This document shows positions 2,617 through 64,000 of a DNA stretch of 64,000 nucleotides, piece by piece. The notes below the pieces were generated by a model. That model was not told the origin of the DNA. It saw only the letters and a program-made list of their open reading frames with translations, and did no database searches. The position numbers and the translations under genes are program-made. Position 1 is the first letter of the stretch. Every line of letters begins with the position of its first letter. Source of the stretch: Octopus vulgaris. Taxonomy: Eukaryota. Location of the stretch: assembly GCA_951406725.2 (NCBI GenBank), contig OX597827.1, forward strand, positions 21,018,001 to 21,082,000, given 5' to 3'.

Positions 2617-2746
2617 TTCAGCAAAATTTAGATTCAAATGAATATGGTACTTAAGTTAGATGCACCAGAATATTGTATGGTGTTATCCATATAAATCCAT
2701 GGGGTGATTATAATCAAAATAAGCAACAAGAATAACTTCGGTAATT

Positions 2747-2830
2747 TGGTACGATCGTTTCACGCTACATCATTTTATTAAATGTTATAAGCATTACAAC
2801 AGATTTAAAATGCTGAGCACTCATCAGCCA
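2747..2830 (-). ncRNA. Hammerhead motif, long stem II
   Basis: TGG-CTGATGA-GTGCT...AGCGT-GAAA-CGATCG-TA-CCA. Stem III is palindromic; stem I is only 3 bp. Confidence 0.65.
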
Positions 2831-3651
2831 GTAATAGAGGTTTTCCATTAATACATAATTGTCATATCAATTGATAACATTATAGAGAAGGTAGATATAT
2901 AGACAAAGATGTGGAGTTAAATTTTAAGAACATTTAAGGTAGTGGAGTTTATCAACTGACTGAAGAATATTCAGTTATTTTGAACTGCTAGAAGGTTTTG
3001 AGAAGAATGAACAATTGAAAGGAGACAAGAAATATTTTCTATTTATAGAAATAGGGGTGAAATAGATGTCAAAGTTCCATATAAAGAAATTGAGATAGAG
3101 AGAAAAGGGTTGTCACACTACAGATGCCTTTTACTACTATTTAGCATTAGGAAAACTAGCTTAATGTCAAATGGTTATAATGACCACTCATAGAGAATGC
3201 AGAGATTTTTTAAAACTTATATACATCAACTTTATAATTAGCTGATAGGTTTTGAGTATTTTGATACGTTGGATTAAAGGAGAAATTATAAATCTACTAT
3301 TTATTCAATTTAGAAAAAAATCTATCACTTATTATGAGTAGGCATAATACTTATTAATTGGGGGTGTGACAACCCTTTTCTCTCTACCTCAATTTCTTTA
3401 TATGGAACTTTGACATCTATTTCACCCCTATTTCTATAAATAGAAAATCTTTCTTGTCTCCTTTCAATTGTTCATTCTTCTCAAAACCTTCTAGCAGTTC
3501 AAAATAACTGAATATTCTTCAGTCAGTTGATAAACTCCACTACCTTAAATGTTCTTAAAATTTAAATCCACATCTTTGTCTATATATCTACCTTCTCTAT
3601 AATGTTATCAATTGATATGACAATTATGTATTAATGGAAAACCTCTATTAC

Positions 3652-3735
3652 TGGCTGATGAGTGCTCAGCATTTCAAAACTGTTGTAATACTTACAACGT
3701 TTAATAAAATGATGTAGCGTGAAACGACCGTACCA
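3652..3735 (+). ncRNA. Hammerhead motif, long stem II
   Basis: TGG-CTGATGA-GTGCT...AGCGT-GAAA-CGACCG-TA-CCA. Confidence 0.6.
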
Positions 3736-3825
3736 AATTACCGAAGTTATTCTTGTTGCTTATTTTGATTATATATATATATATCAATTTATGTTGCAAG
3801 ATTCCTGATGTGAAATCGTATGTTG

Positions 3826-5826: not shown

Positions 5827-6000
5827 GTTCATGTGTGTGTGTGTGTCTATATAGCCGTGTGTGTGTGTGTGTCTATATAGCCGTGTGTGTGTGTGTGTCT
5901 ATATAGCCGTGTGTGTGTGTGTGTCTATATAGCCGTGTGTGTGTGTGTCTATATAGCCGTGTGTTCATGTGTGTATGTGTGTATGTCTATATAGCCGTGT
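5827..6000. repeat. Minisatellite CTATATAGCC(GT)n, about 6 copies
   Basis: Direct reading. Confidence 0.85.
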
Positions 6001-6324
6001 TTGTGTGTGTGTGTTGCATGTCTTATATAATAAACTCGATTAGAATGTTAATTTCATTCACTTAACAAACGTTCGTCAGGCGTTGAAATAAACTCTTTTT
6101 ATATTTTTTTATAGTAGGTTCTTTTTTCTGCGAACTGATATTTCACTCTCCCCCACCCTCTCTTTAACCCTTTTATGCTTTTTTTCTTCATTTTTTTATA
6201 TATATATATATCTGTCTGCCTCTCTCTCTCTCTCTCTCTCTCTCGTTCTCTCTCTCTTTCTCTTTCTCACACTCCATTTCACACACACATACGCGCCCGC
6301 ACACGTCACATACACACTCCCTCG

Positions 6325-6361
<37 letters not shown>

Positions 6362-6579
6362 ACACAGTCGTAGTTCTTTCTCCCTTCCTCTCCCCTTCTC
6401 CTACATCCACAAATTCTCACTCTCTTTCCCTCTCTACTCCTGCAACTCTCTTTCTCTCTCGCACCCCCCTTCCCCCCTCAACACACGCGACACATTCACC
6501 CGCACACGCGCACCACTGCTGGATCACTTGTACGCGGACCAAGTCAAATACTTCAAAAACGGATGTAGGAAAAGAGGCT

Positions 6580-8122
<1,543 letters not shown>

Positions 8123-8306: not shown

Positions 8307-8701
8307 ACTCTTTTACTCTTTTACTTGTTTCAGTCATTTGACTGCGGCCATGCTGGAGCACCGCCTTTTAATCGAGCAACTCGAACCCGGGACTTATTCT
8401 TTTGTAAGCCCAGTACTTATTCTATCGGTCTCTTTTGCCAAACCGCTAAGTAACGGGGACGTAAACACATCAGCATCGGTTGTCAAGCAATGCTAGGGGG
8501 ACAAACACAGACACACAAACACACATGCACACACACATATATACGACGGGCTTCTTTCAGTTTCCGTCTACCAAATCCACTCACAAGGCTTTGGTCGGCC
8601 TGAGGCTATAGTAGAAGACACTTGCCCAAGGTGCCACGCAGTGGGACTGAACCCGGAGCCATGCGGTCGGTAAACAAGCTACTTACCACACAGCCACTCC
8701 T
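8307..8701 (-). mobile_element. SINE family A (head GGAGTGGCTGTGTGGTAAGTAGC, tail GTAAAAGA repeats)
   Basis: Similar copies at 22707, 28178, 49259 and 63886. A/B-box-like head. Confidence 0.85.
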
Positions 8702-8756
8702 TCGTAATGTATTTTCCATTCCTCTTATATATCTATCTCTCTAGCTACATATATAT

Positions 8757-13182: not shown

Positions 13183-14329
13183 CATGTGGCAAAAGAAATA
13201 AATGAGATACTTACTCATACCCATGGAAGAAGCAAACACTAAGTCATGAGCACATGAATCTCTTATGATAAAAGGCAGATTTTCTCTGCCTCCCAAAACG
13301 TTCATTTTTTATACAATTGTACAATATAGAATTTCTTCAATTGGAATTTCCCAATCATTTTTCCAAGTAGATTCCATCGGGTCGTGGCATGTAAAGTTTT
13401 TTCAATTTCACCCCCAATTAAGCAAAAATTTCAGAAAAGTAAATATTTTACGATTTCCCTCTTTCATTTCAAGTGCTTCACTCCTACCATTACCACTACA
13501 CTTTCTCCTCCTTTCTCTTTGCAAGTGTGCAACAATTAAAGTGAAAGTATTTATATAAAAGGGATGAGCAATTAATACTGGTCATCCTTTTTGCTAGAAG
13601 AAGATCCGCTGTGGTCTTATATGCTACACCACTGGTTTTCAATTCATATTAATCAAATTAATATTCAATTTTTCACCCTTATTATGTGTGTGTGTATTAG
13701 CAATTCGTATAAAATTGCATCAATGACTTGAACTTGAATAAGTGGTTTCACATAAATGGGGATACATTAAAAAGGTTTGTTGTTATTATTATTACTGTTT
13801 GACTATTGTAATCACGTTTGTTGGTTCCTCGTCAGGGAAACGTTGTTGTGTTGCATTTGTTAAATAATTGTAAACCGTAACCCTCCCCCTTTCGGAGAAG
13901 GGGCTTTGGTTATTGTTTTAAAATTGAATTGTGTCCCTGTTTGGGGAAATTGACAATATTTTCACCATCTTTATGGAAGCATTTTTGTTAAAATGCCTTC
14001 GATAGAAGAAAGTCCAAAAATGAATTTCGCTGCAGCCGTACACTTCTATACAAGAGGGAGGACAAGATCCACTTGATCGAAATTGCAAGAGACGGGCCTA
14101 CAATTCCAGTCTGTTATATATTTTGAGTATTGTTATCACTAGCGATATCAAGATATAACTTTGTATTTTGTATTTTATGTGTAGATGTATATATATAGAT
14201 GTACATGTAATATGTACACATATATATATATACACATATATATATGCATAATATATCTACCCATACACGCACACGTACACACACACACACATACATAGGG
14301 GCAGGTGTTGCTGTGTGGTAACAAACTAC

Positions 14330-15644
14330 GTTCGAAGATACTGTACTTGATATGGGCGGTAGTGCCTTGCCGGTCTATGGCCTACCTTCAACAAACCGGG
14401 AAGGCACAAACACTCTGTCTTCACATTTGCTGCGTGAGACATGTTTTAATGTTGACGAGCTTGCCGAGTACATAGCCGACAATGAGCCAAAGCTCCTTCC
14501 AGAACAGAAGTTCGCTTACAACTCCGTTGTTAATTCAGTCCGGGCCAAAGCTGTGGGGATATTTTTCCTGGACGCTCCTGGGGGCACTGGGAAAACTTTT
14601 CTCAACAAATTAATATTGGCTGAGATTAGGCGAACACAAGGCATTGCCCTAGCTGTGGCATCATCTGGAATTGCGGCTACTTTGTTGCCAGGCGGCAGGA
14701 CAGCTCACTCCACTTTCAAGCTTCCGCTTGACTTAGCGAAGACTGAGACACCAACTTGCAACATCAGTAACAGCTCCGATCAGGCAGAAGTCTTCAGACG
14801 ATGCAAGCTTATCGTTTGGGATGAATGCACGATGGCCCACAGATGTGCTCTTGAGGCACTAGATAGATCTCTCAGAGACATCAAACACTCTTCAGCTCCC
14901 ATGGGAGGCATAACACTTCTTCTTTCAGGGGACTTCCGACAAACACTTCCCGTTATTCCCAAAGGGACTAGAACTGATGCAGTAAGTGCGTGTCTTAAGT
15001 CATCCACATTGTGGCCACTGGTGAAGACTCTCAAACTTCACACCAATATGCGTGCTCATATGCGACGTAATATCACATCAGCAGCATTTTCTCACACCCT
15101 CCTTGCACTTGGCGAAGGCAAAATACCAGGGGATGAAAATGGTAATATTGCCATCGATTCCATTTGTACCATTGTTAAAACGCCTTCTGATCTCAGAGAT
15201 GCAGTGTTCCCAGATCTACAAGCTAATTATCAGAATATGGATTGGATTGGCCAAAGGGCTATTCTGGCCCCGAGGAATAAAACTGTTCACCATATTAATG
15301 ATGAAATGCTAAAACTCATTCCTGGGGATGTCTATGTATATAAGTCTATCGATACAACTCCTGACCCAGAGGACGTCATCAACTATCCAATAGAGGTACT
15401 CAATTCCTTTCAGCCCCCGGACTACCACCACACATTCTCAAACTTAAAGTTGGTGCCCCTATAATGCTCATTAGAAATTTGGTTCCCCCAAAACAATGCA
15501 ATGGCACACGTTTGATCGTTAAGTCCTTATCTCCCACCGTAAACTTATATCAATATTTGCCTGAATAATCATCATAATTCAGTGCAATCATTAACAGTAC
15601 TTTCAAGCAATTCAGCCCCGAGCATCGCCGGGCAATTCTGCTAG
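14330..15644 (+). mobile_element. Helitron remnant: PIF1-family helicase fragment with intact 3' terminus
   Basis: ORF 14352-15464 has FLDAPGGTGKT, AVASSGIAATLLPGGRTAHS, IVWDECTM and GDFRQTLPV. A frameshifted continuation reads PIMLIRNL..CNGTRL. Ends with hairpin CCCGAGCATCGCCGGG and CTAG|T. Confidence 0.92.
14352..15464 (+). pseudogene. Truncated Helitron PIF1-like DNA helicase ORF (370 aa)
   Basis: SF1 helicase motifs are present. The Rep domain and C-terminal motifs are missing. Confidence 0.9.
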
Positions 15645-20238: not shown

Positions 20239-20273
20239 TGCAGGAGTGACTGTGTGGTAAGTAGCTTGCTTAC

Positions 20274-22338
20274 TTCTCATGACTCTCAGTTGTCAATGTG
20301 CGCATGCGTCATTGTTTGTGCACTGAAGAAGATAGCCGGCTGAGTTTAGCCTGCCAAAAGAAGCTGCTGCAAGGTAGGACTTTTCTCTTGGACCCGGTGA
20401 GGGTCGTTGTCTGTGCTTATATGTTTTACAAACAGGGAATCCTCACTGAATTCAGGATGCTGGTCTACTTGTGATTCAGCAATATGGTCCATAGTAAATG
20501 AAGGGTTTTTTCTCATTGTCTGGTAGGCGTATCCTTCAAACACTTTGTTTTTACAACAACATTTACCATTATTGGAAAACTGTCCTGCCACCGAAAGTCG
20601 TTCGCTGTTTGTAAATAGTGTATATTTTACAAGTACGTTGGAAAGCTGTATTCAAGTGGAGCAGTCCAGGTTCTAATTGGAGTACCATAAGGGCTTGGAG
20701 TACATGAATGCCCATATTATTTTTTGATGTTTATTTTTAGGAACTATTGTTTTCTTGTTCTATTGTGATTTTTTATTGAACTGTTTGCTTTTTATTTATT
20801 TATTCTTCCCTTTTGTTTTCTTTTGAATTCTCTCTTTCATTTTATGCGAACTATTGCTTTGAACATGGCAAAAAAAAATACGGATAAGATTGTAGAGTAG
20901 GAGATTGTCCCACCGAAACAGTGGTTAAAGGATATGGAGGAGAGGACGGTGGTGGTAGGACTTATTCTAAAGTTCATGATACCATCACTGTCTTCCCAAA
21001 ACCAGTTATAGAAAATGAACTGAAAGACTATCTGTCCTCTGTGAAATACATATCCTGTGGTGTCAAGCATGCAACTGTATGGTTGCTGTTTGACTCCCCA
21101 GAAGTGGCCCGTGAATTTGCGAGCCAGCCCCTGGAGGGCAATGACATTTTGTTTCTTCCCATTTATTGTGGGAAGAAGTTGACGAGGGCTTGGGTTTGCA
21201 GCTTTCCACCCGGAGTTGATCCCGAGTGGATTGAAGATACTATCCGCTGGTGTCTGAGTGGCAGTAGCACCAAGCTCCTCAGCGTAAATATTCTGCCTAC
21301 GGCTGACTGGGAGGGGTCAAAAGCTGTTTTGACCCTATGGACCCAGTCAGCCGAAAGTCTGGTATTTCCAGACTTTTTGAGAATGGCCGGGTCTAGGTAT
21401 CCGGTGATGCTTCAGGGACGCTCCCCACCCCAAGTGTCATCGGTGCTTGAAGCCAGGCCATATAAAAAAGAACTGTTCTCAAGGGTAAAGCGAAGTCCTG
21501 GAGCGGTTGACGGAGACATCTGTAGAGGAGGGAATGAAGGCGGCCGAGAAGATGGAGGACTCCTCAAAGAAGAGTCGTAAAAGGAAGGTGAGCAATGATG
21601 GGGCTCACCAAAGAATCCTGGGGATGAGGGAGGGGAGACGAATCTCCAGGTCACGGAGGATACGCACCCTCCCCCAGTCGAGAGGAATATCGCTCGTGGC
21701 CGGGTGACGCCAACTCGGAGCCCGTCTTGATTTTAAAGGAAGCATGGGCTACGGTGGATTACACGGACACAAGCGATGATGAGGTGGAAAATTGACAAGA
21801 GGTTGAAAAGCCTCAGTGTAAGAGACTCAGCGCCTCATTTGTAAATGGACTAGTGTTGATTGTATATTGAATATTTTATTCTATGTTATTGCATGTTATT
21901 GACTATTAAGTCCAATAATTGTAAGAACTGTAGTGAGATGTTCAATACCTCGTTGAGGTGGAAAAATTGACAAGAGGTTGAAAAGCCTCAATGTTATAAA
22001 GTGTAAGAGGCTCAGCGCCTCATTTGTAAATGGACTAGTGTTGATTGTATATTGAATATTTTATTGTATGTTATTGCATGTTAATATTTGTAATGCACTA
22101 TTTTATAGTATGTTATTGCATGTTATTGACTATTAAGCCCAATAATTGTAAAAACTGTCGCGAGAGGTTCAATACCTCGTTTTGTTTATTCTGTTGACAA
22201 AAAAAAATTTTAATGTTTTAGCGAAGCAGAAAATCTCTCATCAATATCATCCTTATTTCATCATTCACCTCATCAATGTTTATGTCCAGCCCGCAAGCTA
22301 CTCTTTGTAATGTCTTTATGGGAAATTTTAATGAAGTA
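20274..22338 (+). mobile_element. ORF1-only retroelement copy 1 (decayed), inserted in a SINE A head
   Basis: TSD AAGTAGCTTGCTTAC at 20259-20273 and 22339-22353. Disrupted ORF ~20865-21795 is homologous to 23395-24639. Confidence 0.85.
20865..21795 (+). pseudogene. Disrupted gag-like ORF1
   Basis: Aligns by eye with the 414-aa ORF (GVKHATVWLLFDSPE vs GVKYATVWLLFDTPE; LVFPDFLRMAG vs LVFPDFLKMAG). Contains a stop and frameshifts. Confidence 0.85.
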
Positions 22339-22479
22339 AAGTAGCTTGCTTACCAACCACGTGGTTCTGGGTTCAGTCTCAGTGCATGGCATCTTGGGCA
22401 AGCGTCTTCTACTATAGCCTCTGGCCGACCAAGGCCTTGTGATTGAATTTGGTAGACGGAAACCGAAAGAAGCCCGTCG

Positions 22480-22510
<31 letters not shown>

Positions 22511-22671
22511 GGAATTTACAAAAAAATAGACGAAGACGGGTGTGTAAACGACAAACAGATGTATTAGTTTAACGCTCGGGAAGTGAGAAAGTCTTTTACG
22601 TTTCGAGCCTACACTCTTCAGGAGAAAGGAACTCAGAAATAAGCACACAGAGAGAAAATAAACAGAGAGAG

Positions 22672-22708
<37 letters not shown>

Positions 22709-23098
22709 TCTTTTACTCTTTTAATTGTTTCAGTCATTTGACTGCGGCCATGCTGGAGCACCGCCTTTAGTCGAGCAAATCGACCCCGGGACTTATTGTT
22801 TGTAAGCCCAGTACTTATTCTATCGGTCTCTTTTGCCGAACCGCTAAGTGACGGGGACGTAAACACACCAGCATCGGTTGTCAAGCAATGCTAGGGAGAC
22901 AAACACAGACACACGCACACACACACACACACACATACATATATATATACATATATACGACAGGCTTCTTTCAGTTTCCGTCTACTAAATCCACTCACAA
23001 GGCATTGGTCGGCCTGGGGCTATAGCAGAAGACACTTGCCCAAGATGTCACGCAGTGGGACTGAACCTGGAACCATGTGGCTGGTTAGCAAGCTACTT

Positions 23099-25345
23099 TA
23101 TTTCAAAACATTTGCCATAAAGGCAGTACACAGATTACGTTAGCTTTGCGGGCTGGACGAGGACATTAATGAGGTGAATGATAATGAAAGAAAGATGATA
23201 AAGATGGGAGAAGACAGAAAGCGCCCGCCGACTTTTGCTTCTCTAAAACATTGTTCTTTTTAAAAAGATAAACACAAAACGAGGTATTAAACCTCTTACA
23301 ATTTTTCCAATTTTGGGCTTAGCAGTCCATTATTAATACAAAACGAGGTATTAATCCTCTTACAATTTTTCAATTTTTGGACTAAAGTCCATTACTAATA
23401 ATACATATCGTCCTCGAAATAGCTTGTGCCCGCGCCCTCCACCATCAACCACGCCTCCCTCAGAACGTAGTCAAGTTCCGAGTTCGCGTCGCCCGGGACC
23501 AAGTTATAATCTTCATTGAGCTCCTTTAGCCCTAGCGTCACGTCGAACGCCACGGCCTCCACAGCTACCTGCGGAGGCCATTCGGGGTCCTGTGTGAAGG
23601 CTAAAGGTGCTCCCTTGTAGTGCTCTTCCATCACTTTTTCAATTTCTCCTCCTCTATAGAAGAGGACCAATACATTCAGTTCTTTCGTTGGCGGCACAGT
23701 TTCCGCCAACGGTATTCCTTCTCTTGTCGGTGGCACAACCCCAACCGACGTAGTTCCGCGACATTCCGGTGCTACACTGACAGCCGGTAGTGTCCCGTTT
23801 TTCTTCCTCTTTTTCTTTTTTTTTCCCTTTTCAACTGAGGGAGGGTGCGTCTCCTCCGTGGCTGGAAGATTCGCCTTCCTCTCCTCATCCCTATTATCCT
23901 TTGGTGAGCACCCATTGTTGCTCACCTTCCTCTTTCGGCCTCTGTTTGAGGAGTCCTCTGCTTTCTCGGCCGTTATCGTTCCCTCTTCTAGAGGGGTTTT
24001 ACTTAACTGTTCCGGGATCCTATTTTGTTCCCGAGGACAGTTCTTCTTTATGTGGCCGGGCTCCAAGCACCGATGACACTTAGCGGGGCGACCCTCAAGC
24101 ATCACCGGGTACCTGCACCCGGCCATTTTCAAAAAATCTGGAAAAACCAGATTGGCTGATTGAGTCCACAGGGTCAAAATTGCTTTCGACCCAACCCATG
24201 CAGCCGCAAGAAGAACTTTTACATTGAGGAGCTTAGTTTCGCTGTCACCCAGACCCCGGCGGATAGTCTCCTCTATCCACTCGGGTTCTATGTCGGGTGG
24301 CAGTCCGCAGATCCAAGCTTTCATCAATTTCTTTTTTTTGTACGTGGGCAGGAATAAGATTTCCTTACCCTCCAAGGGTTTGCTAGCAAATTTGCAAGCC
24401 TCTTCAGGGGTGTCAAATAGCAACCACACCGTTGCATATTTGACACCCCTGGAAATGAATTTAATTGTTGGCAAATACTCTTCCAACTCCTCCTCAATTG
24501 CCGTCTTTTCGAATAGGGCGATGGTGTCAAGTGCCTTGGAGTAGGTTCTCAACACCACCGTCCTATCTTCACGGTCTTTTAACCACTTTTTGGGTGGTAT
24601 GATTTCCCACTCCAAAATTTTGTTATTTTTCATTGCCATGTTTTTTTTAAAAATATATTCAAATTAAACTCAAAAGCAGGAAGAAAAAAAGTTCAAAAGT
24701 CTAGATAAAATTTGATAGATTTTTGAAAAAACAAAAAGGAGAAAGCACAACAGAAGGGAAGAAATTAACGGAAAGTCGCAATAAAGAAAAAAACAAAAAA
24801 GGGGGGGGGGTTAAATGAAGTTCAAAAGAAAGTTAATAAACAGAAAAAACACAGCAAAAATATTCTGGCCTTGCGGTACTCCCGGCCTGGGTTGAACCTG
24901 GAACGCCGCAACTGCAACACAACCTCCACAAAAATGGGTCCGAAAGGTAATCCAATAGTGGCTTATTTTTATACTTTTCTTGCGAAGTACTCTGACAAGG
25001 GAATAAATTCAGCAATCTCAAACACAGCACTGGCTACTGCCAACGGTAATTTTAACAGTAACTGTATTGAATTCTGAGTATACGCCCCTCCACTGTTTTT
25101 TCTTTTTTTTTTTTTTTCAATGAACACAAAAACGGCAGCCGCCTAGCGCAGGCGAAATTGTCTCAGAGTTGGACACAACCTACTGAAATAATAATTGGCA
25201 CGCAATAAATTATGCCCAACTCACAATAAACAAAATCACTTACCTCGACAACTTTCCGTTTTTGGTCTTTTTTCTTTAGTTGGACAGAGCTTGTTACTCA
25301 CGTCCACTCTAGCTCAACAAGAAGCAACCGACTAACTGCGCATGT
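23099..25345 (-). mobile_element. ORF1-only retroelement copy 2, inserted in a SINE A head
   Basis: TSD CTGGTTAGCAAGCTACTT at 23081-23098 and 25346-25363. About 700-bp 5' UTR, one ORF, about 300-bp 3' UTR. No RT or endonuclease. Confidence 0.88.
23395..24639 (-). CDS. Gag-like/LINE ORF1-type nucleic-acid-binding protein with a CCHC zinc knuckle (414 aa)
   Basis: Uninterrupted, complex ORF. CHRCLEPGHIKKNC fits CX2CX4HX4C. Basic tracts RGRKRK and KGKKKKKRKK. Paralog at 20865. Confidence 0.85.
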   Translation of the reverse strand: MAMKNNKILEWEIIPPKKWLKDREDRTVVLRTYSKALDTIALFEKTAIEEELEEYLPTIKFISRGVKYATVWLLFDTPEEACKFASKPLEGKEILFLPTYKKKKLMKAWICGLPPDIEPEWIEETIRRGLGDSETKLLNVKVLLAAAWVGSKAILTLWTQSANLVFPDFLKMAGCRYPVMLEGRPAKCHRCLEPGHIKKNCPREQNRIPEQLSKTPLEEGTITAEKAEDSSNRGRKRKVSNNGCSPKDNRDEERKANLPATEETHPPSVEKGKKKKKRKKNGTLPAVSVAPECRGTTSVGVVPPTREGIPLAETVPPTKELNVLVLFYRGGEIEKVMEEHYKGAPLAFTQDPEWPPQVAVEAVAFDVTLGLKELNEDYNLVPGDANSELDYVLREAWLMVEGAGTSYFEDDMYY

Positions 25346-25719
25346 CTGGTTAGCAAGCTACTTACCACACAGCCACTCCTGTGCCTATATATATATCAAT
25401 TATTGAAGTGGCTAGTAGAAATTTAAAACCAAAAGGCCCAAGTACAACAGTCTCTAAAAGTGACTAAGACCGCAAGTATAATCATATGTAAAAATATGTG
25501 TGCACATTGGTTTCAAATTATGGTAAAGGCAAGAAGTTTCGGGAGGGAGGGAGTAAGTCGATTTCATTGACAACCGGTACTTATTTTATCACCCCGAAAT
25601 GGATGAAAAGCAAAGTCGGCCCCGACGGCATTCGAACTCAGAACGTAAAGACGGACGAAATGCTGGTAAGCATTTTGTCCGGTTGCGCGCTAACGATTCT
25701 TTTTTTTTTTTCTCTAGGT

Positions 25720-27966: not shown

Positions 27967-28177
27967 GCAATAAGTCATATACTGACCGCTTTAAGTGAAA
28001 ACTATCTTCCCAACTTTTCATATTATTTTGAAGTCTTCAGATTGATGCCAAATTTGTTGAAGATTTCGCCGTTTATCCAATTCTCTGCTAAAAGATTATT
28101 TTTGTCTCTTTCTCCGTGCGTAAATCATTTATAGAAGTTTCTCTGCCTGCTTTAGAGTGAGCAATAAAATTCTATTA

Positions 28178-28557
28178 CGCAGGAGTGGCTGTGTGGTAAG
28201 TAGCTTGCTTACCAACCACATGGTTCCGGGTTCAGTCCCACTGCGTGGCACCTGGGGCAAGTGTCTTCTACTATAGCCTCGGGCCGACCAAAGCCTTGCG
28301 AGTGGATTTGGTAGACGGAAACTGAAAGAAGCCCGCCGTATATATGTATATGTATATGTGTGTGTATCGCTTGGCAACCGATGCTGGTGTGTTTACATCC
28401 CCGTAACTTACCAGTTCGGCAAAAGAGAGCGATAGAATAAGTACTAGGCTTACAAAGAATAAGTCCTGGGGTCGATTTGCTCGACTAAAGGTGGTGCTCC
28501 AGCATGGCTGCAGTCAAATGACTGAAACAAGTAAAAGAGTAAAGGAGTAAAAGAGTA
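28178..28557 (+). mobile_element. SINE family A, uninterrupted (empty-site reference)
   Basis: Continuous GTGTGGTAAGTAGCTTGCTTACCAACC. Confidence 0.88.
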
Positions 28558-49105: not shown

Positions 49106-49434
49106 ACACACACACACGTATATCCGTGCGTCCATGTCTTTATTTTTGAAATACTTCAATATTATTGTTGCTGTTATTGTGTTATATGTGTAAAAAAAGG
49201 TAAATAAATAAATATATGAATAGATAAATAAATAAATAAAAATATAAATATATGAATAGGCGTAGGAGTGGCTGTGTGGTAAGTAGCTTGCTTACCAGCT
49301 ACATGGTTCTGGGTTCAGTCCCACTGCGTGGCACCTTGGGCGAGTGTCTTCTACTATAGCCTCGGGCCGACCAAAGCCTTGTGAGTGGATTTGGTAGATG
49401 GAAACTGAAAAGAAGCCCGTCGTAAATATGTGTG

Positions 49435-49478
<44 letters not shown>

Positions 49479-61309: not shown

Positions 61310-62235
61310 ATTCTCAAAAACTGTGAAGTAATAATGCTGTTGAATTGTGGAATAAGTTCAGAAATGATCTTGCTGAAGATTTCAAGTATCAAGTTCGGTT
61401 GAGTAAGCTGAGCAAGATATCGTTTTCACTGATGCTATATACAATGCGGCTTTGATTGAAATAGAAGATCAAATTATTTCGATGGGAGGTGAACCTATAG
61501 AAAATTGAGGTCTCCCACTAACTAACAGAGGAGATCTTAACAATCTATCCACTGAAATAATGAGGGAAATTTCCTATGATAAGGATGAACTGACCATGTA
61601 CATAAATGATAATCTTCCCAAGCTTTTGCGGGATCAACGTCGTACATATTCCACTATCATAGAAAGTATTAACAGTAACAGAGGAGGACTTTATTTCTTA
61701 GATGTTCCATGAGGTCCTGGGAAAACCTTTGTTATTAAACTCCTCCTGGGTGAAGTTCTTCAAGAAAATAAAATAGCTTTAGCTACTGCTACTTCTGAGA
61801 TTGCAACAACATTACTACCCGGAGGTCGGACTGCCCGTTCAACATTCAAGTTACCTTTAGATTTATCAAACAAAGAAGATCTAGTTTGTAATATATTTAA
61901 AAATTCTGCAATGGGTGAACTAATACAAAGATGTCACTTAATTGTCTGGGACGAATGTACAATGGCCCACAAAATAGCTTTTGAAGCTGGGGACAGAACA
62001 TTACGAGACATTAGAAATTGTAATTCCATGATGGGAAATGTCACAGTATTATTGTGAGGAGACTTCCGACAAACACTACCAGTTGTTCCAAGAGGAGCAA
62101 AAGTGGATGAGCTCAAAGCTTCAATAAAGTCTTCTGCATTATGGCATCATGTGAAAATGCTTCAACTTTCGACAAATATGAGATCGAGGCTTTCAGGAGA
62201 TCAATCTGATTATCTATTTGCAGAGCATCTTTTGA
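61310..62235 (+). pseudogene. Decayed Helitron PIF1 helicase
   Basis: FLDVP*GPGKT, LLPGGRTA, IVWDECTMAH and GDFRQTLPVVP, with multiple stops. Confidence 0.85.
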
Positions 62236-63890: not shown

Positions 63891-64000
63891 AGGAGTGGCT
63901 GTGTGGTTGGTAGCTTGTTTACTAGCCACACGGTTCCAGGTTCAGTCCTACTGCGTGGCACCTTAGGCTAGTGTCTTCTACTATAGCCTCGGGCCGACCA
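63886..64000 (+). mobile_element. SINE family A 5' part (runs off the window)
   Basis: Head sequence matches 28178. Confidence 0.85.

Follow-up and report, generated by a model that had tools for sequence, protein, structure and literature searches.

Two inserts at one base of a SINE

A 64,000-nt stretch of the Octopus vulgaris genome (assembly GCA_951406725.2, contig OX597827.1, positions 21,018,001 to 21,082,000 of the forward strand), hereafter the window, contains two retroelement inserts that carry a single open reading frame (ORF), ORF1, and interrupt copies of one short interspersed element (SINE). Both inserts break the SINE at the same base, GTGTGGT/AAGTAGC (the slash marks the insertion point), in the SINE's orientation. 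A first-pass annotation made from the letters of the window had described two diverged copies arranged in this way, and their coordinates, orientation and junctions are as it gave them. The features of the two inserts, their hosts and the empty copies of the SINE are as follows, in window positions.

20240..20258, + strand: host SINE 1, its head as far as the insertion point GGT/AAG
20259..20273, + strand: left target copy of copy 1, a 15-bp match to the right copy
20274..22338, + strand: copy 1, an ORF1-only element of the older subfamily, decayed
20865..21685, + strand: broken ORF1 of copy 1, with stops and two frameshifts; zinc knuckle readable near 21432-21480
21780..22181, + strand: internal duplications in the 3' untranslated region (UTR) of copy 1 (21780-21898 / 21954-22083; 21882-21954 / 22109-22181)
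22293..22302, + strand: GCAAGCTACT, reverse complement of target bases 2-11, in the tail of copy 1
22311..22323, + strand: 3' terminal hairpin motif of copy 1, decayed form
22339..22498, + strand: right target copy of copy 1 (22339-22353), together with only the first half of the host SINE 1 body
22706..23098, - strand: right target copy of copy 2 (23082-23098), together with the whole body and the tail of host SINE 2
23099..25346, - strand: copy 2, an ORF1-only element of the young subfamily
23113..23125, - strand: TGCC-N5-GGCA hairpin motif of copy 2, common to the two-ORF partner described below
23139..23149, - strand: GCAAAGCTAAC, imperfect antisense target copy in the tail of copy 2
23395..24639, - strand: intact ORF1 of copy 2, 414 amino acids (P0001); CCHC knuckle at residues 187-202 (24034-24081)
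25347..25363, - strand: left target copy of copy 2, 17 bp, partly element-encoded in the short-element family
25364..25381, - strand: head of host SINE 2
8307..8705, - strand: empty SINE copy, site at 8684
28177..28555, + strand: empty SINE copy, site at 28198
49261..49443, + strand: empty SINE copy, first half, site at 49281

The 12-mer AAGTAGCTTGCT, with at most one mismatch, occurs seven times in the window against 0.24 expected. These occurrences are the two flanks of each copy and three empty sites at 8684 (- strand), 28198 and 49281 (+ strand), which confirms the empty sites proposed near 8680, 28199 and 49281. At 63908 there is a fourth SINE without an insert, a degenerate one. The target forms an imperfect inverted repeat, TGGTAAG-N7-CTTACCA (window 28194-28214), and insertions are found in one orientation only. 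Motifs that may be A- and B-box-like, judged by consensus only, flank the insertion site on either side in the SINE head.

Within the ORF, copies 1 and 2 align over 824 nt at 73% identity; at the 3' end, 257 nt align at 70%, and no alignment is found between their 5' UTRs. The zinc-knuckle ORF that had been assigned to each is open in copy 2 only; that of copy 1, besides its stops and frameshifts, lacks most of the C-terminal part. Neither copy encodes a reverse transcriptase (RT) or endonuclease, as had been noted, and tblastn finds no remnant of a second frame, ORF2, in either (best E 0.73). Contigs of four sequencing runs (one guessed to be RNA, three of unknown kind, with three other organism labels among them) cover all 30 bins of copy 2, which indicates presence only.

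The two copies lie 760 bp apart in inverted orientation, as products of one old segmental duplication might. However, their divergence, their differing 5' UTRs and the different SINE subfamilies of their hosts contradict this origin, as do the many relatives of copy 2, 97-98% identical to it, on other contigs genome-wide. A segmental duplication is thus refuted, and its probability is virtually nil.

The short-element family and its target site

The surveyed genome comprises 2.8 Gb. A 27-nt pattern from the tail of copy 2, with the junction excluded, has 217 exact copies, and in 212 of them the next bases are AAGTAG; in all of the first 30 listed, the tail continues into a SINE body. The flanks are therefore not random, and the proposal of one exact site holds for this young subfamily. 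For the older tail type, that of copy 1 (107 exact copies), it holds in only about two thirds of cases. Among 35 copies fetched with both ends, 34 are elements of 1.9-2.3 kb with several 5' UTR types, and one is truncated. About 24 of the 103 protein matches listed have an essentially full open ORF1 frame. Exact empty targets number 25,456 and 27,720 for two SINE subfamilies, and a pattern for filled sites has 820 matches, so that roughly 1.5% of targets are occupied.

The inserts entered SINEs that were already in place. Over the last 600 nt, the identity among 19 young copies is 98.9%, whereas that among their host SINE bodies is only 90.2%, a difference that also answers the earlier proviso that duplicated flanks should be as diverged as the elements. 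In 14 5'-truncated copies, chosen because a SINE head is visible, the head stands directly upstream with 0-17 bp duplicated, or more in one of the 14. Different subfamilies, short and long, also stack head to tail at the site. Host diversity, truncated copies with a head and stacking together exclude both segmental duplication and hitchhiking, in which SINE and insert move as one composite unit and no site-specific endonuclease is needed. Two observations would fit hitchhiking: roughly one in two young copies has a host of the younger TAAC subfamily, and 37 of 38 copies of the two-ORF partner are of full or nearly full length. However, the TAAC subfamily also makes up about half of the empty sites (27,720 vs 25,456), for which reason a supposed preference of short elements for it was dropped as well. 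The truncated copies that keep their head, the diversity of the hosts and the use of one base by unrelated families stacked in arrays refute hitchhiking, which we regard as exceedingly improbable.

The two-ORF partner

An autonomous partner with endonuclease and RT at the same base had been predicted, and such a long interspersed element (LINE) was traced via the filled-site pattern; the end of ORF2 is present in four of the first 30 filled sites. The partner (L141/L142) measures 5.45 kb and has an ORF1 of 467 amino acids followed by ORF2. The Pfam domains of ORF2, Exo_endo_phos, RVT_1 and zf-RVT, correspond to an endonuclease, an RT and a C-terminal zinc-binding motif. Its best match among solved structures is human L1 ORF2p (E 1e-66), with R2 at 1e-19, and the partner belongs among the retrotransposons that lack long terminal repeats (non-LTR), in the L1/Tx1 group. 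Its domain order, lack of poly(A) and site specificity, all traits of Tx1 elements, suggest that it is of Tx1 type.

The 3' junction of the partner lies at the site in 30 of 30 copies, 27 in a SINE body and 3 in another element. Target preference of Tx1 elements has been defined as more than 20% of flanks in one repeat (PMC4494074), a share that the partner far exceeds. Genome-wide, 108 exact partner tails are present, and the copies are about 98% identical to one another. In a set of 38 copies, picked by 3' identity only, the ORF2 frame (1140-1150 codons) is open in 7 and both ORFs are open in 3. Older two-ORF subfamilies insert at the same base. An ORF2 search of plasmids found nothing and is uninformative.

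A census of filled sites took the first 100 listed and set aside 10 that had been retrieved before (7 short, 3 two-ORF) as well as 12 in which the letters before the site do not resemble a tail, which left 78. These comprise 35 short elements with ORF1 seen, 16 sites that show the short-element tail only, 12 two-ORF elements and 5 partner-like tails; just the hairpin is present at 6 sites and none of these features at 4. Short elements outnumber two-ORF copies at the site, 51 vs 12 of 78.

The first 30 matches to zf-RVT, tried as the partner, proved to be other two-ORF families. Other intact two-ORF families (L145 at G000:C2:73.046-73.063 Mb, L311-L314 and L322) have repeated 3' flanks and tandem arrays, and probably have targets of their own.

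The shared 3' end

The partner had been expected to share the whole 3' tail of the short element. Only the last ~37 nt align in DNA, and the rest of the 3' UTR is unalignable. The tail has no poly(A), and AATAAA forms across the 3' junction. The motif TGCC-N5-GGCA lies 9-19 nt from the end; each of its pairs is kept in 57-60 of 68 distinct tails, which had been selected by this motif, and double-sided changes occur in three tails at the outer pair and in three at the third pair.

A second feature of the tail is a short copy of the target in antisense. Of 63 short-element tails, 33 contain AGCTAC, which is target bases 3-8 in reverse complement; the match often extends further, to 10 nt at most, and 52 of the 63 contain AGCTA. 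Among partner-type tails, 18 of 20 have AGCTAC as well, whereas its frequency in shuffles is about 2% and none of 34 other ends contains it. The distance of the segment from the end is 34-42 nt in short elements but 71-73 nt in the partner, and the sequence around it is otherwise unalignable between the two. The segment is predicted to pair with added read-through bases in 5 of 6 folds. A strict need for the segment is argued against by its imperfect form in the young subfamily of copy 2 and its lack in a second ORF1-only family (L300, below), and is weakened further because related tails are not independent in these counts. An antisense copy of the own flank was sought in other two-ORF families and not consistently found.

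The left repeat is a hybrid

The first-pass annotation had read target-site duplications (TSDs) of 15 and 18 bp starting at the same base. The common start stands; the repeat of copy 2 is 17 bp plus a coincidental 18th base, since this G is the first base of that 5' UTR type where the host has A, and its left repeat is partly element-encoded. In hosts with a TTAC variant, the left repeat is still the TAAC of the element in all 7 short copies and in all 12 long ones (a further copy, L219, is excluded since its right neighbor is another element). Apparent TSDs of full-length copies are partly element-encoded, because the left copy tracks the element and not the host SINE in all 19 cases. In the truncated copy L245, in contrast, both repeats copy the host, whose own variants are duplicated over 16 bp. 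In one 5' UTR type, base 10 of the left repeat is missing from 10 of 12 copies irrespective of the host. An additional T near base 9-10 is frequent among partner copies. The left junction would rebuild a full target and thereby account for the head-to-tail arrays. A symmetric second nick in the inverted-repeat target, with expected repeats of 13 bp, was also considered and is unsupported by the observed range of 0-17 bp.

ORF1: structure, selection and ancestry

P0001 contains one CCHC knuckle (Pfam E 0.0026, just short of the cut-off). Its layout consists of two predicted folds resembling the RNA recognition motif (RRM), the knuckle, a basic linker and a C-terminal part of about 95 residues. 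A predicted structure of residues 1-207 (pLDDT, the predicted local distance difference test, 82.8) has two strand-helix units followed by the knuckle. The units may be read as RRM-like because of their secondary structure and of Atlas leads for a homologue, P0002 (scores 0.89-0.93, TM <0.5). No L1 ORF1p is among the solved-structure matches of this ORF1, which is of the CCHC-knuckle type and homologous to the ORF1 of octopus two-ORF elements.

The short-element ORF1 is under purifying selection. For residues 1-205, the ratio of nonsynonymous to synonymous substitution rates (dN/dS) falls within 0.11-0.33 in every one of 28 comparisons, which reach a dS of 1.8; all of them share P0001 as reference and hence are not independent. 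Between the window copies, the comparison that had been proposed as a check, it is 0.18 at dS 1.05. The C-terminal part has values of 0-0.3 among most close subfamilies and of 0.4-1.0 among others.

One explanation of this selection is that the short element is itself a helper, on whose ORF1p the partner would depend to find the target or to enter the nucleus, much as TART depends on HeT-A Gag. The conservation of ORF1 across subfamilies would agree with this role, as would the greater number of short elements at the site and the C-terminal part, which has no counterpart found and is conserved among close subfamilies. However, the partner owns a full ORF1, open in some copies, and a preference of ORF1p for its own RNA in cis accounts for the selection equally well. 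We consider a helper role improbable.

The ancestry of ORF1 bears on whether short elements are recurrent internal deletions of the site's two-ORF LINE, comparable to TRE5-A.2 or to short elements derived from R2, with a selection signal inherited from autonomous ancestors. Internally deleted partner copies do exist (L215, L222, L234, L241). However, short-element ORF1s form one clade (100/100) on a long branch. Their identity to each of the sampled two-ORF ORF1s is 24-33%, with 28% over 196 residues for that of the partner, whereas the two-ORF ORF1s share 33-47% with one another. A sample of 20 diverged ORF1 matches, 78 filled sites and 20 other ORF2 loci contains no two-ORF element whose ORF1 is P0001-like, and the 3' UTRs differ as described. 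A tree that groups the short-element ORF1 with that of the partner is not rejected (p-AU, of the approximately unbiased test, 0.343), so that the origin may be the partner lineage long ago, in a single ancient event, or another lineage. A recent origin by deletion is largely refuted, the family being one clade with a selected ORF1 and not the sporadic deletions that had been raised as a counter-case, and recurrent deletion is in our judgment quite improbable.

The only full relative of P0001 among the protein-collection candidates scored is an Octopus sinensis record (64%), and no ORF1 of its type is found beyond Octopus sinensis records among 152 proteins compared.

A model of insertion

We consider it highly probable that the inserts represent a long-lived ORF1-only family at one base of the SINE head, likely placed there by the endonuclease and RT of the two-ORF L1/Tx1-group LINE. 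Mobilization in trans by the partner's ORF2p is inferred from the shared site, the shared 3' end and the mixed arrays. Promoter position, read-through, hairpin binding, nicking and the use of ORF2p in trans are modeled on known LINE biology (PMC4176376; PMC7265360).

The short element would be transcribed from its own 5' UTR, with a start inside the left repeat. The AATAAA across the 3' junction would let the RNA extend slightly into target sequence. The partner's ORF2p would then bind the 3' hairpin, nick the bottom strand at GGT/AAG and prime reverse transcription, aided by pairing of the read-through bases. The end of the cDNA would anneal to the top-strand overhang via the target-like 5' end of the RNA. 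This step would yield a hybrid left repeat, favor full-length copies and rebuild an intact target, and arrays would grow upstream. The short element would retain its own ORF1p, as ORF1p would coat mainly the RNA that encodes it.

Several observations weigh against a partner-driven, strictly site-specific family. Among the first 30 copies of the older tail type, 18 lie at a SINE body and 2 more have damaged junctions, while 9 lie elsewhere (5 of these 9 start with AAGT) and 1 is unjudgeable. The truncated copies L087, L091, L097, L251 and L258 have no SINE head seen upstream. The tail hairpin is short, and its folding is mostly no better than that of shuffles (z -2.0 to +1.5). The linker of ORF1 has dN/dS near 1 in many comparisons, and the common reference ties all dN/dS values together. 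The SINE head, putatively derived from a tRNA, has no tRNA match in Rfam. Finally, trans-mobilization, the transcription start and read-through are deduced from sequence.

A broader form of the model, which we hold to be unlikely although worth stating, gives the RNA itself a part in choosing the site. The target-like 5' leader, the 3' read-through and the internal antisense copy, 35-70 nt from the end, would grip both DNA strands in what would be an RNA-assisted LINE system with a specific site. An ancient satellite lineage bearing its own ORF1 would have joined once it had gained the antisense piece along with the 3' hairpin. For a community of elements, the SINE head would be a landing pad that renews itself.

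Other occupants of the site and other features of the window

A second ORF1-only family of about 1.5 kb uses the same site (L300:2494-3987 and 5957-7466; G000:C7, ~72.866-72.871 Mb). It has a partner-type tail and no antisense segment, and its ORF1 is 38-44% identical to that of the partner and 26% to P0001. Its copies share a mixed array with one short and one two-ORF element. In L304, L308, L219 and L248, four or more elements, short and long mixed, stand head to tail in one SINE. A different SINE is inserted at the same base in L109, L252 and L264; its tail resembles those of other two-ORF families, and the copy in L109 also bears the site-specific hairpin end. These cases suggest that the endonuclease also carries non-cognate RNAs. 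A 106-bp derivative at the site (L033 / L088, G000:C1:39263450-39263580), with a 17-bp repeat, joins ~50 nt from the start of the short element to ~50 nt from its end. In most 5' ends, GCGCATG-like motifs or ACGT stand no more than 45 nt from the left repeat (window 20300, 25338-25344); these may resemble NRF1 and CRE sites. The 5' UTRs are exchanged between subfamilies.

Elsewhere in the window, PIF1-like helicase frames at 14322-15464 (Pfam E 3e-67) and 61713-62057 are probably Helitron fragments. A fragment of a Mariner-type transposase lies at 232-570 (Pfam Transposase_1, E 4e-20). Near-perfect long inverted repeats at 1478-2195 and 2709-3773, with arms of 271 and 410 nt, are probably young miniature inverted-repeat transposable elements.

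Relation to known systems

HAL1 of mammals derives from L1 and is not known to be site-specific. The octopus element has the traits of a HAL1-type element in that it encodes ORF1 only, has no ORF2 remnant, is present in 217 and 107 exact-tail copies and has a selected ORF1; unlike HAL1, it lacks poly(A), shares only a short 3' end and uses a single target base. It is not a HAL1 in the strict sense of a mammalian-type L1 minus ORF2, as its ORF1 is of the CCHC-knuckle type and has no match to L1 ORF1p among solved structures. HAL1 is likewise non-autonomous and encodes ORF1p only (PMC5753468).

The nearest known system is Tx1-Mar with SINEU-3 of crocodilians. It too pairs a Tx1-clade LINE with a non-autonomous passenger at a common target in another transposon, with a duplication of ~16 bp and tandem insertions; 313 of 347 SINEU-3 copies are on target, and hitchhiking is excluded by truncated copies (PMC4494074). 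However, the target there is a Mariner DNA transposon and not a SINE head, and the passenger is a non-coding SINE derived from small nuclear RNA, unlike the 2-kb octopus passenger with its selected ORF1 (PMC4494074). The Tx1 targets listed in the excerpted text are DNA transposons, LTR elements, U2, U5, 5S, satellites and microsatellites, with no SINE among them (PMC4494074).

TRE5-A.2 of Dictyostelium lacks ORF2 and keeps ORF1, is mobilized in trans and has a target near RNA polymerase III units in common with its partner (PMC5391098). Unlike the octopus element, it is a deletion derivative of TRE5-A.1 and targets by distance from tRNA genes via ORF1p (PMC5391098). The near-identity of such a derivative to its partner outside the deletion has no parallel in octopus, where the ORF1s are 28% identical, DNA similarity is confined to the last ~37 nt and insertion is into a fixed sequence. 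HeT-A of Drosophila telomeres is similarly long-lived, gag-only and selected, outnumbers its RT donor and lies in mixed head-to-tail arrays (PMC5537684). However, HeT-A attaches to chromosome ends, serves the host, and has a Gag that targets partners (PMC5537684), whereas the octopus insertions are internal, with no host function indicated.

At the 3' end, the octopus system resembles R1Bm and SART1Bm, in which downstream target or target-like RNA bases aid accurate priming (PMC7265360), and stringent LINEs, whose ORF2p recognizes a 3' stem-loop (PMC4176376), a binding that would apply to octopus by analogy. The segments of R1Bm and SART1Bm are sense to the target (PMC7265360), whereas the octopus tail segment is antisense, and the excerpts of PMC7265360 and PMC4176376 contain no case of an antisense segment like it.

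The octopus repeat annotation reports 13 recently active L1-Tx1 families, and its excerpted text lacks the words 'target' and 'non-autonomous' (PMC13282606). The excerpts of PMC4824008 and PMC8869645 hold nothing specific to the octopus system. A Tx1-type LINE that targets a SINE head with an ORF1-only dependant is unreported in the full-text literature searched, which covers few subscription papers. The octopus families may already be deposited in Repbase or Dfam, outside that search. Each ingredient has a precedent in HAL1, TRE5-A.2, HeT-A or Tx1-Mar/SINEU-3, and the combination is absent from the literature searched.

Implications

The octopus genome holds a young site-specific LINE system, apparently recently active, with more than 53,000 free targets and an ORF1-only dependant that outnumbers its helper. 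For annotation, the apparent TSDs of the short-element and partner family are unusable for dating or defining insertions. A LINE of 5 kb that uses one base, is nearly always full-length and probably takes passengers via a tail of ~37 nt is of interest for targeted gene insertion. The system also provides a natural test of how far the precision of LINE insertions, and their completeness, depend on RNA-DNA pairing at the two ends. Moreover, it offers a natural test of why half-elements keep ORF1, as an ORF1p with 28% identity must work with a foreign ORF2p.

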